This document shows positions 1 through 6,861 of a DNA stretch of 30,057 nt, in pieces (the stretch's first letter is position 1; each line of letters opens with the position of its first letter). Source of the stretch: Bacteroidota bacterium. GTDB taxonomy: Bacteria; Bacteroidota; Ignavibacteria; UBA10030; UBA8401. The stretch lies in the NCBI GenBank assembly GCA_040753935.1, contig JBFMDF010000001.1:1-30057 (forward strand), in the 5' to 3' direction. Below the pieces are notes generated by a model. The model searched no databases, was not told the origin of the DNA, and was given only the letters and a program-made list of their open reading frames with translations. Both the position numbers and the translations under genes were made by a program.

Positions 1-1070
1 ATGAACGCATTAATCCGTAAACTCGACGACAGGTTAAGGTCTACTCCACCTAAAAGAGAATATGCGGTTGTCCCCCCTTCATAGGCAATTTTTTCTAAAT
101 AACTCACTGAGTCAATATCATTATTATAATACACGTTTCCGGAAATAGAATATTGCCCTATTCCCCAACCGATGAAATAATGAAATATCTCTCCTTCTTC
201 TGTATTGAATTGATACACAAACGAAAATGATATTGCCTTACATTCGTTGACATCATCATTCTTATTTGCGGTTTCTATTAAAAATGACAATGATTTTGAA
301 ATGTTGACACGAAACGTATACCAAGGAATTGATCTGATGGTAAACTCAGGTGAAAGACGGGAGATACGGTTTGTAGAATTTCTGTACCTGTTTTCAATGG
401 CATTAAACGCTGCGTCCAGTCCGCTAAGGTCTGGTGAAAATGTTGATATTCCATACCCAAAACTTGACTTGGGGTATGCATCAACTTCTTCGATCTCCTT
501 TCCTGACTCGTATTTTTCAGCAAGAGGAAGAATATCGGGGTCTTTGGGAGAAACGTACGTTTCATTGATCGAATAAATATTCCTCTTCACATTAGATTTT
601 TTACCTGAAACAGAAATACCATCATTATGCTGTGCTGTTTTCATAGGTGTGTTTTTACGATAATATTCCATATCGGGTTGTATAACTTCCCCATTTATGG
701 TTTCCAATTGTGCAGGGTCATCACCTATGGTATATTTGCCTGTTACCAAATCTTCATAATGATTAATTTTTTCCGCCAAGACGTGCATAAGAATTTTTAT
801 GTAAAAAAGCACCGTGTCTTGTGTTCCACTTTTGGTATTGTATGTAACGTTACAAAAGAACGTGCTGTCGGAAGAAATGTAAAACACGGCACTGGTGAAA
901 TTTTTAATACTTCGGAACATTCCGAATTGTTTTCTTTCCTCAGCATCAATCACAGCCCCTACGCGTGGGCTGATAATGACAATCGTTGCACTGTCTTGAT
1001 TTTGAGTGCGTGCAAGTTGAGATACAAAAGCAACACACATCAGGCAGCAGATAAATATTCTGGGCTGCAT
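1..1070 (-). CDS. Exported hypothetical protein, truncated by the window edge; C-terminal part looks like an outer-membrane beta-barrel
   Basis: Not in the ORF track because its stop lies outside the window. Manual translation from ATG at 1070 is open for 356 codons to base 1: MQPRIFICCLMCVAFVSQLARTQNQDSATIVIISPRVG...FHYFIGWGIGQYSISG...AYSLLGGVDLNLSSSLRINAF. It has a signal-peptide-like N-terminus, alternating aromatic/Gly strands late in the sequence, and starts 22 nt after the nucleotidase stop. Confidence 0.8.
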   Translation of the reverse strand, partial: MQPRIFICCLMCVAFVSQLARTQNQDSATIVIISPRVGAVIDAEERKQFGMFRSIKNFTSAVFYISSDSTFFCNVTYNTKSGTQDTVLFYIKILMHVLAEKINHYEDLVTGKYTIGDDPAQLETINGEVIQPDMEYYRKNTPMKTAQHNDGISVSGKKSNVKRNIYSINETYVSPKDPDILPLAEKYESGKEIEEVDAYPKSSFGYGISTFSPDLSGLDAAFNAIENRYRNSTNRISRLSPEFTIRSIPWYTFRVNISKSLSFLIETANKNDDVNECKAISFSFVYQFNTEEGEIFHYFIGWGIGQYSISGNVYYNNDIDSVSYLEKIAYEGGTTAYSLLGGVDLNLSSSLRINAF

Positions 1071-1092
1071 ACATTCCCTGTGTTTGATGATA

Positions 1093-2967
1093 CTATTTTA
1101 CCAGGATCATTTTTCTTGTTGCCGTAAATCCGTCCACTTCAAGTTTGTAAAAATATATTCCTGACGCGACATCTTTTGCATTCCATACTATTTCTTTTTG
1201 ACCAGCAGAGAGTTCCCCGCTGATCAACGTCGCAATCTCCTGCCCTAATACATTATAAACCTTCAATGTCACCAATCCCGTCACCGGAACAGCAAACCGT
1301 ATTGTTGTTGCCGGGTTGAACGGATTCGGATAATTCTGTTCCAACCGAAATTCGGTAGGAGGGGCTGGATTCTTTTCTTCCTTCACCGGACTCACCACAC
1401 TGTTACGCCGCTGGGGATAAATTGTATCCCGCTGCATAACATAGGCAACCAACGTTTGAAATTCTGTCGAATCATTATAGATAACCAAATCAGAGTATGG
1501 AATTTCCAGTTGATCCATTACCAACGGTGTAAATTCGTTGGAGACAACCGTATATTCTTTCATCAGATCAAGAGGTTGACCGCCGATGAGCACTTCCGTC
1601 ACACGCGAGCCCGCAGGGTTGTTAGGATTATATGTGTATGTTAATCCACTCGCCTGGATTAAAAATTCGTCGTCTGCTTCTATTGAAGAAAGCCCGAATT
1701 CAAGACCGTACATCAGTGCCATTCCGCTCATTTTAAATGTTGCCATTCTGAATCCGAGATAATTATGTTCGTTAAAACCGTATCCAACCACGCGAAAAAG
1801 ATCTGCCGCAACAATTGCACCCTTATACAACGGCTGCGCGGTTGAACCTCCCGCCTCTATGGCAATGTCCGTCTTGAATATTTCACGGTATGCGTCGGTC
1901 ACCAAATTGCCGATCGGTGTATCCTTTGGACCGTTGCCGGTTAAATTAGTTGCGACTTCATCAAATTGTTCTGCGGCATACCCAATAGGGTTGCTATAGA
2001 GAGGTCCGAAAATTCCTTCGACTGAATTTTTCATTACGTCAATCATCATGGCAGTCTGCACATCTTCGGCAATTGTTGAATCCACCTGAATCAGTTCATA
2101 CCCGGCAAGGCGGACAGTATTTGATTCCTTAATCACCGTTATTTTTCCAAGTTGCAGGTAGAATCCATCGGTCTGAACTACGTACGTTGTATCGCCGGAA
2201 ATATTAGAAATCGGTACCGGCTGTTCAAATTTTTTATGATCATGCCCACCAATGATAAGATGTATTCCGGGAACGTATGCCGCGACTGCCTGATCAATAC
2301 CGAATCCGAGGTGCGACAAACAAATTATCAGATCGCATCCTTGCGAAGAGAGCGTATCAACCATAGCCGCCGCTGTTTCAAGAATAAGGGTATCAACAAC
2401 TGCCGGCGCAGGATTTGAAAGAAGATTCGTCGAAGGAGTCAGCAATCCGAAGATACCAACCGTGATGGTGCCGTACTGTTTGACGAGGTACGGTTGAATG
2501 TACTGTTTGAGCGGCTGCACATCCGGCGCATCGAGAATGAGATTCGCAGAAAGAAGAGGAAAGCGCGCAGATTGGAAAACGGTATCACAGGCGTGATACA
2601 ACATTCCGGGACCGAGATCGAACTCATGGTTGCCGATTGCCATCGCATCAATTCCCATGGAAAGGAGCACGCTGAGTTCTCCTGCACCCACGGTTCCATT
2701 GAATACCGGATCACCGATGAATGAATCTCCGGCGTGCAGTGTCAGCACGTTTGCGGATTGCATGCGTGTTTGATTGATCAGCGTTGCAGCGCGCGCCGCG
2801 CCACCAAGTGTTCCTTTCATCTGATCATCTTTTGGTCCGATCGGAAGTATATTGGAATGTGTATCGTTCAAATGAAGGATCACCAATGTATCGGCAGCCG
2901 CGGTTGCTTTGGTGAATCCGATAACGACTGCCGACACGAGTGTAAGAATAGATTGAATAGTTTTCAT
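1093..2967 (-). CDS. 5'-nucleotidase/UshA-CpdB family metallophosphoesterase with C-terminal T9SS type A sorting domain
   Basis: Signal peptide; calcineurin-like motifs HLNDTHS, AGD, GNHEFD, SHLG, GGHDH; 5'-nucleotidase C-domain (DTPIGNLVTDA); C-terminal EQNYPNPFNPATTIRF...KVYNVLGQEI...ASGIYFYKL...RKMILVK. Confidence 0.9.
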   Translation of the reverse strand: MKTIQSILTLVSAVVIGFTKATAAADTLVILHLNDTHSNILPIGPKDDQMKGTLGGAARAATLINQTRMQSANVLTLHAGDSFIGDPVFNGTVGAGELSVLLSMGIDAMAIGNHEFDLGPGMLYHACDTVFQSARFPLLSANLILDAPDVQPLKQYIQPYLVKQYGTITVGIFGLLTPSTNLLSNPAPAVVDTLILETAAAMVDTLSSQGCDLIICLSHLGFGIDQAVAAYVPGIHLIIGGHDHKKFEQPVPISNISGDTTYVVQTDGFYLQLGKITVIKESNTVRLAGYELIQVDSTIAEDVQTAMMIDVMKNSVEGIFGPLYSNPIGYAAEQFDEVATNLTGNGPKDTPIGNLVTDAYREIFKTDIAIEAGGSTAQPLYKGAIVAADLFRVVGYGFNEHNYLGFRMATFKMSGMALMYGLEFGLSSIEADDEFLIQASGLTYTYNPNNPAGSRVTEVLIGGQPLDLMKEYTVVSNEFTPLVMDQLEIPYSDLVIYNDSTEFQTLVAYVMQRDTIYPQRRNSVVSPVKEEKNPAPPTEFRLEQNYPNPFNPATTIRFAVPVTGLVTLKVYNVLGQEIATLISGELSAGQKEIVWNAKDVASGIYFYKLEVDGFTATRKMILVK

Positions 2968-3000
2968 GACAATTCCTCTGTTTTTTTGTCCCGCATGATG

Positions 3001-3549
3001 TTATTCTTTTGACGGTTTGTTAATCGAGTATCCGAAGACAAATGATAATCGGTTGCCGTCGGGATTTGTTGCCATCACAATGTTCAATGGAATGTTCACT
3101 CCGCCGTAGTCAAGCACATAACCGACCGCAACAACTAATGCGGTTGAAATCTTCGTCGGCGTAACGATGGCGTTCGGACCCATGCCGAATTCAAATCCGC
3201 TGGGAAGACGAATACCCATCACCAATGATGCACTGGGAATTAATGTTCCGTATTCAACTCCTGCGACGAGCGGTACAAATTGAATGACGAATGATGGGCG
3301 CTCTCCTTCCGGCTGCACCTGATACTCAAAGTGCCATCCGAACTGACTGATGAACCGGCCGATGCTTTTTTGTTTTAAGTCGTACACCAATTTGCCCTCA
3401 CCAATAACAGAGGTAATTCCTAATCTTGGGCCGCCAAGATTATTCTCGCCGAACTTTAATTCTTTCAAAAAGCCGGCAGACGTTTGGCTGTAGGTACATG
3501 TAACCGCTGTTACCAAAGCCACTGCGAGTATTGCCGATATTTTTTTCAT
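3001..3549 (-). CDS. Exported hypothetical protein, probable small outer-membrane beta-barrel
   Basis: 182 aa; signal peptide; SD-like AGGAGG upstream; amphipathic strands (SQFGWHFEY, GFEFGMGP, LSFVFGYS). Confidence 0.7.
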   Translation of the reverse strand: MKKISAILAVALVTAVTCTYSQTSAGFLKELKFGENNLGGPRLGITSVIGEGKLVYDLKQKSIGRFISQFGWHFEYQVQPEGERPSFVIQFVPLVAGVEYGTLIPSASLVMGIRLPSGFEFGMGPNAIVTPTKISTALVVAVGYVLDYGGVNIPLNIVMATNPDGNRLSFVFGYSINKPSKE

Positions 3550-3605
3550 GATATCCTCCTATGGTGATTTTTGTAAAAGTTGTTTTTTTGTCTTTCTCCA
3601 CAGCT

Positions 3606-3658
3606 AACTTACCCGCAACCAACAAGAGAGTTGTCATAGAATTGTCAAATGGCCGTCA
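3606..3658 (-). promoter_or_regulatory. Probable activator-dependent promoter of the leftward operon: three 11-bp-phased repeats plus a TAAGTT element
   Basis: Plus-strand TTGTCAT (3631), TTGTCAA (3642), CCGTCAA (3653), GTCA cores exactly 11 bp apart. On the minus strand TAAGTT (3611-3606) lies 20 nt downstream of the proximal ATGACA. Confidence 0.6.
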
Positions 3659-3691
3659 AAGTTTTGTGGAAATTGAGGAAAGAAATATTCC

Positions 3692-3722
3692 TTGAAAGTG
3701 AACGTCTGGGGCTGTATTTTGC
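3692..3722 (+). promoter_or_regulatory. Bacteroidota-type housekeeping promoter of the kinase/regulator pair
   Basis: TTG (3692-3694) - 20 nt - TATTTTGC (3715-3722), resembling the -33 TTTG / -7 TAnnTTTG consensus. Confidence 0.5.
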
Positions 3723-3746
3723 ACACGCACAACCGAAGGGTGGGGT

Positions 3747-6176
3747 ATGAGGAACCAAAAATCTTCTCGCATGATCGGGTATTTCTATCTCCTTGCCGAT
3801 TTGCTGATTCTTATTGTTTGCCTGCAGCATATCCCATCGATTGCTCAGCGTGCACATTTCCCAATGTCTATCGTTTCACAGGGGGAAACTGTTACCGTCA
3901 AGGAAATCATCTCTGCGCATCATGCTCAACATCTCTCAGTCGGTGACACTGTGCTTTCGGTGAGCGGACTTCAACCACGAAATATTTTTGAACTGCAATT
4001 CATTGCCGATACAAAAAAGAAAAACGACACCATCTCGGTTGCGGTCAGCCGAAGAGGTGAAATATTTCAAACAGCCGTAGTATTACTTCCCTACTACACC
4101 ACAATACGCTTTATTCTGATTACATTTTTTGTCGGCATTGTTATGTTTATGTTGAGCGGATTGCTGATCTTCTCTATCCCTCACGAGCCACTTGTACATT
4201 ATCTTCATAACATTATTGTTTCATTGAGCGCAGCGTTGATGTTAACGTGGGGCACGATGGATGGTTCACTGTGGACTGCCGTAGCTACTATTCTATTCTT
4301 TCTCTCATACTTTCTGTTCGGCCTTGTTTTTCTGTTATTCTGCTACGCATTGTGGAAACCGTTGGGACCTGTTCCATTATGGATAACTCTTGCATTGTAC
4401 ACGGCAGTAGTATGTTACTCCGGTTGGACTTCGTATCTTTATTTTTCATCTGTTGCGCAGATATCGCTTGAACAGTTTAGAGTTTTTTCTGTCTATCTTT
4501 TCATCTTTCGTTTGTTAGTTGTAGTAGCCGTGTGTGTTGGTATGGGATTGCTCATTGCAACACTCGGAAAGAAAACTTCACCTGAAGATGCCACGAGAGT
4601 GCGGTGGGTCATCGGCGGTATTGTGGGAGGCGGTTTACCATATACAATATTCGGAATTATTCCTGTAACATTTTTCGGCGCCGATGCATTTGCGGAAGAA
4701 ATCAGCACACTCTTCTTCCTGTTGGTTCCGCTTTGCATCTCTGTTGCCTTCATTCGATACAATCTATTGAATCTCCGTTCGTTTGTCAGACGCCAGAGAA
4801 TTTCCACTATCTTTCGTCTGCTTCTCTACAGCTGTGTTATCTTTATCTCCGCCGTACTCGCCGCACACGTTGTTGAGTGGGAACAGTTCGATACACATTT
4901 CGTTATTGCTTTTATTGCCGGCACTTTGGTAGTGTTGCTGCTCTCTGTTGGAACTGTGTTTGAGCAATATGTCGATGAGAAGTTATTTCAGACAAAACTG
5001 AATTTCCGAAAAACGCTGAAAGATTCGATTGCCGAACTGCAGACCTCGCTCGACGACCGTTCGCTGTTTCACCGCTTGCTTGAGGTTATACACCATCATC
5101 TTCCCATCCGCGCGGCTGCAGTGTACCAATACAACAACGGCGTTACTCGGCAATTGCAGTACATCGGACAGCAACAAGGAACCGCAGACATCAAGGGGGA
5201 CACTATTCGTCTCATCGAAAACAATGTTTCACCAATTGTTCAACTCCATACCACCGCTACCAACAACGGTGTCTTCGATTACGCCATTGCAATACGAAAA
5301 CAGTCGGGAGAACTTGCCGCCATTATCGGTTTGTATCTTGAAATGCGGCACGACAGGCTCGAAGATGAAGATCGTGATTTTCTCACTTCGTTGGCTGCAG
5401 AAGCGTCGCTGATGCTGGAACGGTTCCAACTACAGGAAGAAATTATCTTAAAGAAAAATGAAGCGCGGCGATCCGAAGAAATGAATGCGTTGAAATCCTT
5501 TTTTGTTTCCAGCGTTTCCCATGATCTTCGACTTCCGCTGACAACAATTCGTATGTACACGGAACTACTGAATGACGACCATGGCCTTTCTAAAAGAAAG
5601 AAATCGATATTTCTCCGAACAATTTTAGGAGAAACAGACAGATTAACACAGTCCGTGGAGAATATTCTCAACATTACCGCTATTGAGCGAGGGAAATTTC
5701 AGCTTACCTTCTATCCGGTCGACGTACGGCTCATTGTGAAACGAGCCGTACAAGCGATGCAGTATGAAATTAAAAAAAGATCTGCCACTGTCATGCTCTC
5801 TCTGCCAAATCATAAACTGACTGTGCTGGCGGATGAAACCGCGTTAGAGCGGGCGGTGATGAACTTAATTTCAAACGCGTTGAAATACTCGTTACAAAAA
5901 TCGAGAGTCACTGTAACGGTAAGAAAACAATCTTCCACTGGCACTATTATCGTGTCCGATCATGGCATCGGAATCCCTCGTCAAGAACAGGCAAAAATTT
6001 TTGAAAAATTTTACCGCATCGAACGGAGTCCTCGGCTTCAGCAGTTGAGTGGATTGGGAATTGGACTGGCTGTGGTGAAGTATATCGTCAATCAACATCA
6101 TGGAACAATCTCTCTTTCAAGTAAACTAAACAAAGGGACGACATTCACTATTTCACTTCCTCTCACCGTCGCATAA
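3747..6176 (+). CDS. Membrane sensor histidine kinase (PDZ-like, about 9-10 TM helices, GAF-like linker, HisKA, HATPase_c)
   Basis: PDZ-like LSVGDTVLSVSG; many hydrophobic segments; H-box SSVSHDLRLPL; N-box MNLISNALKYS; G1 VSDHGIGIP; F-box IFEKFYR; G2 GLGIGLAVV. Confidence 0.92.
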   Translation: MRNQKSSRMIGYFYLLADLLILIVCLQHIPSIAQRAHFPMSIVSQGETVTVKEIISAHHAQHLSVGDTVLSVSGLQPRNIFELQFIADTKKKNDTISVAVSRRGEIFQTAVVLLPYYTTIRFILITFFVGIVMFMLSGLLIFSIPHEPLVHYLHNIIVSLSAALMLTWGTMDGSLWTAVATILFFLSYFLFGLVFLLFCYALWKPLGPVPLWITLALYTAVVCYSGWTSYLYFSSVAQISLEQFRVFSVYLFIFRLLVVVAVCVGMGLLIATLGKKTSPEDATRVRWVIGGIVGGGLPYTIFGIIPVTFFGADAFAEEISTLFFLLVPLCISVAFIRYNLLNLRSFVRRQRISTIFRLLLYSCVIFISAVLAAHVVEWEQFDTHFVIAFIAGTLVVLLLSVGTVFEQYVDEKLFQTKLNFRKTLKDSIAELQTSLDDRSLFHRLLEVIHHHLPIRAAAVYQYNNGVTRQLQYIGQQQGTADIKGDTIRLIENNVSPIVQLHTTATNNGVFDYAIAIRKQSGELAAIIGLYLEMRHDRLEDEDRDFLTSLAAEASLMLERFQLQEEIILKKNEARRSEEMNALKSFFVSSVSHDLRLPLTTIRMYTELLNDDHGLSKRKKSIFLRTILGETDRLTQSVENILNITAIERGKFQLTFYPVDVRLIVKRAVQAMQYEIKKRSATVMLSLPNHKLTVLADETALERAVMNLISNALKYSLQKSRVTVTVRKQSSTGTIIVSDHGIGIPRQEQAKIFEKFYRIERSPRLQQLSGLGIGLAVVKYIVNQHHGTISLSSKLNKGTTFTISLPLTVA

Positions 6177-6180
6177 TAGT

Positions 6181-6861
6181 ATGAAAAACATTCTCATTGT
6201 CGAAGATGAAATACCCGTCCGCAACGGATTGCGAGAACTGCTAACACAAGAAAATTTTTCAGTGGATACTTGCGGAACGGGAAAAGCCTGCCTCGATGCA
6301 GTAAAAACAACGGTGTATGATCTGATCATTCTCGACATCATGCTGTCGGATATGTCGGGATTCGATGTTTGCCGGACAATGCGTTCGCGCAACGTGTCGT
6401 CAAAAATTTTAATGCTGACGGCACGAAGTGAAGAAATTGACAAGGTTCTGGGCCTTGAACTCGGCGCTGATGACTATGTCACAAAACCATTTGGCAATAA
6501 AGAACTCATCGCCCGTGTCCGTGCGTTGCTGCGCAGGCAGGAAAAAATATCACAATCACTCGGAGAAGTTTCGTTTGACGGAATGAAATTTGATTTTGCA
6601 AAACAGAATGCTCTTCGGGGCAAAGAAGAACTGCGCTTGAGCGCAAAAGAATTTAAACTGCTTCACTATTTTCTTCAACACGAAGGCGAGGTTGTCACGC
6701 GAGAACAATTGCTGAACGATATCTGGGGCTATGACAGCACCCCAACAACGCGAACGGTGGATAATTACGTTTTATCCCTTCGCAAAAAAATTGAAAAAAA
6801 CCACCGGAAGCCAAAACATCTCATCACCGTTCACACTTCGGGATATAAATTTGTACGATAG
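6181..6861 (+). CDS. OmpR/PhoB-family response regulator
   Basis: REC motifs ILIVEDE, IILDIML, GADDYVTKPF; winged helix LLNDIWGYD...TRTVDNYVLSLRKKIE...GYKF; 4 nt after the kinase stop. Confidence 0.95.
   Translation: MKNILIVEDEIPVRNGLRELLTQENFSVDTCGTGKACLDAVKTTVYDLIILDIMLSDMSGFDVCRTMRSRNVSSKILMLTARSEEIDKVLGLELGADDYVTKPFGNKELIARVRALLRRQEKISQSLGEVSFDGMKFDFAKQNALRGKEELRLSAKEFKLLHYFLQHEGEVVTREQLLNDIWGYDSTPTTRTVDNYVLSLRKKIEKNHRKPKHLITVHTSGYKFVR

Follow-up and report, generated by a model that had tools for sequence, protein, structure and literature searches.

Three 11-bp-phased TGACA-type repeats as a putative PhoB-family operator between a two-component system and a nucleotidase operon in a member of the Ignavibacteria

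We analysed a 30,057-nt stretch of DNA (the window), positions 1 to 30,057 of contig JBFMDF010000001.1 (assembly GCA_040753935.1), which is contig C1 of a fragmented metagenome-assembled genome from the Ignavibacteria (G000; 2.59 Mb in 480 contigs, 44.5% G+C, 93% complete). Between two divergent groups of genes at one end of this contig lies an array of three direct repeats with an 11-bp phase. On one side, three tightly packed genes occupy the minus strand (3549-3001, 182 aa; 2967-1093, 624 aa; 1070-3, 356 aa); on the other, a gene for an 809-aa histidine kinase (3747-6176) is followed 4 nt later on the plus strand by one for a 226-aa response regulator (6181-6861). The best explanation overall, to which we give a probability of roughly two in three, is that this two-component system activates the barrel/nucleotidase operon through the TGACA operator. 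The array is very likely a functional PhoB-family operator, and the neighbouring PhoB paralogue probably reads it and activates the operon. The elements concerned are as follows.

3..1070, minus strand: third operon gene, 356 aa, truncated by the contig end, separated from the nucleotidase gene by 22 nt
1093..2967, minus strand: nucleotidase gene, 624 aa, UshA-type 5′-nucleotidase/phosphoesterase with a C-terminal sorting domain for the type IX secretion system (T9SS)
3001..3549, minus strand: barrel gene, first of the operon, 182 aa, with a signal peptide and a predicted 8-stranded outer-membrane beta-barrel
3604..3611, minus strand: putative -7 box TAAGTTAG, following the proximal unit after exactly 20 nt
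3631..3660, minus strand: putative operator of three 11-bp-phased units, TGACG (3658 to 3654), TGACA (3647 to 3643) and TGACA (3636 to 3632)
3692..3722, plus strand: kinase/regulator promoter with its own TTG and -7 elements, TTG (3692-3694), 20 nt and TATTTTGC (3715-3722)
3747..6176, plus strand: sensor histidine kinase gene, 809 aa, Pfam HisKA and HATPase_c
6181..6861, plus strand: response regulator gene, 226 aa, OmpR/PhoB family, Response_reg and Trans_reg_C

On the plus strand, positions 3631-3660 read TTGTCATAGAA, TTGTCAAATGG and CCGTCAAA, with cores TGTCA (3632-3636), TGTCA (3643-3647) and CGTCA (3654-3658) at an 11-bp phase, exactly as an earlier preliminary description of this DNA had reported. 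That description also placed the end of the proximal repeat 20 nt before TAAGTT on the minus strand, and this was confirmed: the proximal TGACA (3636 to 3632) is followed by exactly 20 nt (3631 to 3612) and then by TAAGTT (3611 to 3606). No TTG was found in the -33 slot of the operon promoter. The -7 part is present and a regulator unit takes the place of the TTG, which is the signature of an activator-dependent promoter. Three direct repeats, an 11-bp phase and a proximal unit in the upstream promoter slot together make up the architecture of a PhoB-family operator, and tandem direct repeats that replace the upstream promoter element are a textbook mechanism.

The orientation of the units is not that of an E. 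coli-type pho box, as TGTCA lies on the plus strand and the operon on the minus strand. Toward the kinase gene the TGTCA orientation would fit, but that gene's own complete promoter sits 30 nt further on. This promoter had been claimed previously; it was found as TTG, 20 nt and the -7 element listed above, and its blocks are kept in three relatives (G004, G001 and G022). Relative to the operon, the units have the orientation of the Bacillus PhoP box and run opposite to those of an E. coli pho box.

The -33/-7 promoter type is plausible for this genome because the pattern TTG-N19-21-TAnnTT[TG] was enriched about four-fold upstream of genes (58 occurrences in the -150 to -10 regions of 931 genes with Shine-Dalgarno support, compared with 15 in shuffled sequences and 12 inside genes) and because a similar RpoD motif, TTG-N17-23-TA[ATC][ATC][AT]T, was obtained by differential RNA sequencing in Chlorobaculum tepidum (bioRxiv 10.1101/172254). 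TAnnTTTG alone was not enriched upstream of genes.

In the proposed mechanism, the membrane kinase would respond to a signal and phosphorylate the OmpR/PhoB-family regulator, dimers of which would occupy the 11-bp-phased units head to tail. The proximal unit would then stand in the position of the -33 TTG, 20 nt upstream of the weak TAAGTT -7 box, so that bound regulator would recruit RNA polymerase carrying the primary sigma factor. Activation would then be of class II, like that at pho promoters, and the transcript would encode the small outer-membrane barrel, the T9SS-secreted 5′-nucleotidase and a third envelope protein, which together may form a module for the hydrolysis of extracellular nucleotides and phosphoesters.

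Genome-wide searches returned no second intergenic site of the same kind. A strict three-unit TGACA array with at least 14 of 15 matches gave one hit in the 2.59-Mb genome, the site under study. When the unit was written T[GT]ACA, two hits were obtained at the same threshold, the second of them inside a 619-codon open frame; the site under study is the only intergenic three-unit array scoring at least 14/15, which fits the earlier suggestion of a self-contained regulon. The preliminary description had proposed a genome scan with TGTCA-N6-TGTCA. This two-unit pattern occurred 6 times, with about 6 expected by chance; it is therefore uninformative, and three units are needed for a distinctive pattern.

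Homologues of the 182-aa gene were found in 40 of 277 genomes of the order, and the best among them gave 30 loci for comparison. An array scoring at least 13/15 was present in 18 of these 30, preceding the start codon by 89-131 nt; among 6000 shuffled upstream regions, no more than 0.17% reached that score. In 11 of these 18 arrays, TAnnTT came exactly 20 nt after the proximal unit, and the strict pattern occurred at no other distance. Conservation at these loci thus upholds the earlier placement of the repeat in the -33 slot of the barrel/nucleotidase operon. The consensus, anchored on the proximal unit, was TTTGAC-N5-TTGACa-N5-TG(A/G)CAA.

Arrays of the same phase, with divergent flanks, were found upstream of the 182-aa gene in G004, G001, G022 and G024. 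The first two belong to the same genus as the window and have kinases 60-61% identical to its own; G022 is from another genus and has the divergent layout. The kinase of G024 is 29% identical, and the four genes are there on one strand with the array between the regulator gene and the 182-aa gene. When four divergent intergenic regions were aligned, islands of identical sequence stood out at each of the three units, at the -7 box, at the promoter elements of the kinase gene and at the ribosome-binding site. The low-scoring barrel loci include ones in which the barrel gene is not the first of its operon. An additional gene precedes the barrel gene in G001, and the array lies farther upstream; the product of this gene (L022:1150-2000), about 290 aa long and encoded between the promoter and the barrel gene, ends in an aromatic residue and resembles outer-membrane proteins. 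In G004, a 230-aa protein with a weak OMP_b-brl match is encoded after the barrel gene, in the place of the nucleotidase (L021:4944-5636).

If the repeats were due to chance, or were non-regulatory, they might for example be overlapping -35-like TTGACA hexamers. The chance frequency of the two-unit pattern across the genome agrees with this, as does a scan of the region for sigma-70 consensus promoters, which, like a terminator scan, gave results at the level of shuffled sequence. It is nevertheless strongly disfavoured, and in our estimate extremely improbable, because the three-unit array is unique in the genome and keeps its phase, position and spacing in different families of the order.

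Contigs from four public metagenome runs (X1-X4) were compared with the window over positions 3300-4000. One contig of X1 joins position 3569 to position 3630 across 2541 other bases, which stand in place of 3570-3629. Contigs of X2, X3 and X4 break at the same two places and leave loose ends, those upstream being identical across runs; X2 also carries the window's own form of 3570-3629. The loose end beside the array has a different 20-nt spacer, which again ends at TAAGTT. The array and its 20-nt distance to TAAGTT are therefore kept, and the downstream content varies. All four runs have A for T at 3637, making the proximal unit TTGACA, and the 2541-base variant resembles the extra gene between promoter and barrel gene in G001. 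An exact 30-mer scan of metagenome contigs gave no match to the 2541-nt insert, and a kinase-based metagenome scan for it yielded nothing but unrelated kinase cores, most of which came from gut metagenomes.

Orthologous regulator or kinase genes lay within the 1.5-kb flanks of 12 of the 18 array-bearing loci. The pair is about 5 kb from the array-bearing barrel locus in G008, and each of the remaining five array genomes has exactly one orthologous kinase, in four of the five on the same contig and 6-10 kb away. Genomes of this genus, and likewise G022, have the divergent layout; the order kinase-regulator-array-target was found in G024, G008, G018, L040, L041, L043 and several of the L13x-L15x loci. 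When loci were sampled by kinase instead, the array was just downstream of the regulator gene in G008, G018, L040, L041 and L043, upstream of the kinase gene in G032 and divergent from it in L047. Linkage is therefore maintained through divergent, tandem and distant arrangements, in agreement with the earlier claim that the array belongs to the adjacent regulator pair. In two genomes of the same genus, G002 and G003 (both 100% complete), neither a full-length match to the kinase nor any match to the 182-aa gene was obtained. The association of the array with the kinase/regulator pair is frequent and not universal, and the same holds for the repeats in orthologous loci of related genomes, where the preliminary description had suggested that conservation and synteny be examined.

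The local regulator matched PF00072 (105.6 bits) and PF00486 (92.3 bits), as members of the OmpR/PhoB family do, and D9, D52, T80 and K102 are invariant in 19 regulator sequences. Its scores against two PhoB models fell below their cut-offs: 210.1 bits for TIGR02154 (cut-off 296.2) and 178.5 for NF053854, the Bacteroidota PhoB model (cut-off 270). A second regulator, on contig C188, adjoins a PhoR-like kinase gene and scored 246.9 and 229.1 bits, higher yet also below the cut-offs. By these comparisons, the local regulator is a PhoB paralogue and not the canonical PhoB. The recognition helix points the same way: PTTRTVDNYILSLRKK is matched, with a few conservative substitutions, by all 13 orthologues of the local regulator, whereas six canonical PhoB orthologues have DRTVDVHIRKIREK. 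The local family, with TRTVDNYILSLRKK, thus does not have the PhoB-type helix (DRTVDVHIR..); DNYILSLRKK stands where the clade's canonical PhoB orthologues have DVHIRKIREK.

The genome has a canonical Pho system of its own, in which pstSCAB-phoU lies behind a porin gene on contig C9 (porin-pstSCAB-phoU spans C9/C101). The pstS promoters of G000, G001, G003 and G004 contain three to four TAACA units at an 11-bp phase, the third of which is followed by exactly 20 nt and then TAnnTT, and the porin promoters carry similar arrays. The pho boxes of the clade can be written [G/T]TAACA, repeated three to four times at an 11-bp phase (G000 C9:295-390 and C101:~810-880; L125, L126, L127 and L128). Nine of the ten TAACA arrays scoring at least 13 in this genome are intergenic, including those of pstS and the porin gene, and the scan that found them misses the site under study. 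T[GT]ACA arrays at the same threshold are almost all inside genes, except the site under study. At position 2 of the unit, kinase-linked arrays have G in 48 of 54 cases, T in 5 and A in 1, whereas pstS units have A in 11 of 12. The array units accordingly do not match the pstS and porin units of their own clade.

The earlier label 'pho-box-like' was right for the architecture, three units at an 11-bp phase. Because the organism's own pho boxes read TAACA, it describes architecture only and, on this sequence evidence, does not denote membership of the Pho regulon; the orientation, moreover, is the reverse of that in E. coli. Compared with the canonical Pho regulon of the same organism (C188, C9/C101), the array has the same phase and the same geometry of unit, N20 and TAnnTT, but its units are not TAACA, it is a single intergenic array as against nine, and its presumed reader has a different recognition helix. 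Two PhoB-family regulons are thus indicated, with one promoter geometry and a different unit core and reading head. A further phased array, TCACA/TCACA/TAACA, lies at C17:8660 (plus strand) of G000 beside an OmpR-family regulator gene (C17:7937-8623) whose product is PhoB-like, with 210 bits on TIGR02154; together they are perhaps a third pair of operator and regulator built in the same way.

Several observations weigh against assignment of the array to the adjacent pair. Strict TAnnTT is absent at 17-29 nt from 7 of the 18 arrays, and the uniqueness of the array is provisional because the genome is 93% complete. Orthologous pairs at L027, L028, L029, L039, L042 and L044-L046 had no array scoring at least 13 in the fetched flanks. 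PhoR-type loci of other phyla, which served as controls, also have TGACA arrays, and a PhoB-type helix can therefore read TGACA. In G004, G003 and G000, the single phased array of the porin promoter contains both TAACA and TGACA-like units, so that cross-recognition between PhoB and the paralogue is possible. The porin array is extended in this way by phased TGACA-like units, to seven units in G004, and could allow cross-talk with the paralogous regulator.

The TGACA arrays at PhoR-type loci and the mixed porin promoters speak for a rival reading in which the array is a conventional pho box recognised by canonical PhoB (C188), with the operon in the phosphate-starvation regulon and the neighbouring pair controlling something else or only modulating. 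The promoter geometry is indeed that of pstS, and extracellular nucleotidases and phosphoesterases are typical members of Pho regulons. We consider this unlikely, since position 2 of the unit splits cleanly between the two groups, the recognition helix of the paralogue is distinct and conserved, the TAACA search misses the site, and the array tracks the paralogous pair, not the phoB or pst genes, through several rearrangements. Dual control, in which the local regulator and PhoB both bind and a local signal is integrated with phosphate status at one promoter, would draw on the single-base difference between the unit cores, the identical geometry and the mixed arrays at the porin promoter. It too seems improbable, as TAACA units almost never occur in the pair-linked arrays (1 of 54).

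The geometry bears also on the sign of regulation. The units overlap the -33 slot, so that a bound regulator could in geometric terms repress, by occluding the -33 region of a constitutive promoter. The promoter, however, has a weak -7 box and no TTG -33 element that could be occluded, and the pstS promoters of the same genomes share the geometry; in the bacteria that have been studied, PhoB-family regulators activate pst promoters. Repression is in our view very unlikely.

Activation by the adjacent pair can be extended to a broader proposal, which we hold only tentatively and which is more doubtful than not. The Ignavibacteriales would have a second, Pho-like but phosphate-independent circuit, in which a PDZ-like, polytopic, GAF-like kinase and a PhoB paralogue have co-diverged with an operator that has TGACA in place of TAACA at an otherwise unchanged promoter geometry, are thereby insulated from PhoB, and place a one-operon regulon of surface phosphoesterases under an envelope or extracellular cue. 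Such a cue might be the availability of organophosphate, nucleotides or extracellular DNA, or it might consist of C-terminal peptides that the PDZ-like domain of the kinase detects. If this were true, the circuit would offer a natural example in which one base divides regulator/operator specificity.

The following genes were found behind the array in other genomes.

L043, G024 and others: the barrel and nucleotidase pair
L040: an Exo_endo_phos protein
L041: an Exo_endo_phos-Omp85 fusion, also found downstream of the pair in G032
L047: a 424-aa T9SS-tailed protein
G008: a large (870-aa) CarboxypepD_reg protein

Surface or secreted phosphoesterases and outer-membrane proteins are the recurrent theme among these targets, which is in keeping with the phosphoester scavenging proposed earlier. 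On contig C6 of G008 (L024:2700-2760, L152), two arrays about 5 kb apart lie near one kinase/regulator pair, one before the gene for the 870-aa CarboxypepD_reg protein and the other before the barrel gene; the regulon there includes at least two promoters. The barrel-gene match in G008 contains one in-frame TAA. In G032 (L023:2145-3053), the orthologous kinase/regulator pair is followed by genes for a thymidylate-synthase-like 302-aa protein and the Exo_endo_phos-Omp85 fusion, a gene content that may indicate a nucleotide-related role wider than the release of phosphate. A 175-aa protein encoded behind the array in G018 was considered as a barrel homologue and rejected (BLASTP E 3.9).

The 182-aa protein had no Pfam or NCBIfam match. 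Its AlphaFold2 model (pLDDT 86.7) has eight long strands after the signal peptide, and Foldseek aligned it with Ail, OmpX, the transmembrane domain of OmpA and NspA (for the first three, probability 1.0 and TM-scores of 0.5-0.6). The protein is thus predicted from its model to be a small 8-stranded outer-membrane barrel of the OmpX/Ail/OmpA-transmembrane type. Its family comprises at least 649 related clusters, and among the 120 listed all source names are 'hypothetical protein'. The 624-aa protein combines Metallophos (38.8 bits) with 5_nucleotid_C (94 bits), as UshA-type 5′-nucleotidases do, and carries the tail of a T9SS type A cargo, with Por_Secre_tail (PF18962) at 35.9 bits (cut-off 27) and TIGR04183 at 43.8 bits (cut-off 23). 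It reached no equivalog cut-off in NCBIfam. The 356-aa fragment had no Pfam match and gave weak leads to outer-membrane beta-barrel clusters in a protein atlas; it is probably an outer-membrane protein. A homologue of it is encoded after the barrel gene in L154.

The kinase consists, in order, of a first transmembrane helix, a small periplasmic PDZ-like beta domain, about eight more transmembrane helices, a GAF-like domain, HisKA and HATPase_c. Its AlphaFold2 model (pLDDT 76) shows a beta-rich domain with one helix at residues 35-112, between the first two transmembrane helices, and an alpha/beta domain at 437-531; a hydropathy scan supported the approximately eight further membrane helices. 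H592 is invariant. Matches to PDZ_2 (17.8 bits, threshold 27; E 0.004), PDZ (17.3 bits, threshold 23.2) and GAF (E 0.0055) were all sub-threshold in Pfam, and the PDZ label for the periplasmic domain is plausible. Foldseek with the whole kinase model returned kinase cores only, the PDZ-like and membrane parts not being identified by fold, and a word-indexed search with the kinase N-terminus returned only six close relatives.

Among known systems, PhoP-PhoR of Bacillus subtilis likewise combines an OmpR/PhoB-family regulator, three to four phased coding-strand units over the upstream promoter element, and secreted phosphoesterase targets. PhoP boxes are TT(A/T/C)ACA direct repeats on the coding strand that replace the -35 element at an 11-bp phase. 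The core here is TGACA, with a G that is absent from the Bacillus consensus, and the promoter is of the -33/-7 type of the FCB group. The kinase, unlike that of B. subtilis, is PDZ-like and polytopic with a GAF-like sensor, and the regulon is apparently a single operon in an organism that has a separate canonical Pho system. The pho box of E. coli PhoB-PhoR (CTGTCAT, twice) shares the TGTCA core, the 11-bp phase and the replacement of the upstream promoter hexamer, and provides the model of class II activation; its orientation relative to the regulated operon is the opposite, and the local regulator is below the PhoB cut-offs (210 compared with 296 bits). The closest solved structure is that of RegX3 (2oqr, E 9.5e-50), the PhoB-like OmpR-family regulator of SenX3-RegX3 in Mycobacterium tuberculosis. 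This likeness is a general family resemblance, the SenX3-RegX3 kinase architecture and operator being unrelated.

The circuit is thus an uncharacterised member of a well-known type, and with a textbook mechanism the surprise is modest: the regulatory prediction is solid but unsurprising. A literature search on Ignavibacteria two-component systems with a nucleotidase found nothing relevant, and to our knowledge almost nothing is known of transcriptional regulation in the Ignavibacteriales. For this uncultured group, the analysis provides a precise, testable assignment of operator, promoter and regulator, defines the real pho box of the clade (TAACA units, N20 and TAnnTT), and ties two uncharacterised families, the small barrel and the PDZ-like, polytopic, GAF-like kinase, to extracellular phosphoester/nucleotide scavenging. 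If the one-base difference between G and A truly insulates both regulons, they would form a compact natural model of how paralogous regulators avoid cross-talk.

Strong AGGAGG Shine-Dalgarno sequences were seen at 3540-3549 of the window and at the start codons of neighbouring genes. Bacteroidia and Flavobacteriia are described as being without Shine-Dalgarno sequences (PMC6847099). Shine-Dalgarno usage at the locus is thus unlike that of these two classes, although the promoters are of the -33/-7 type.

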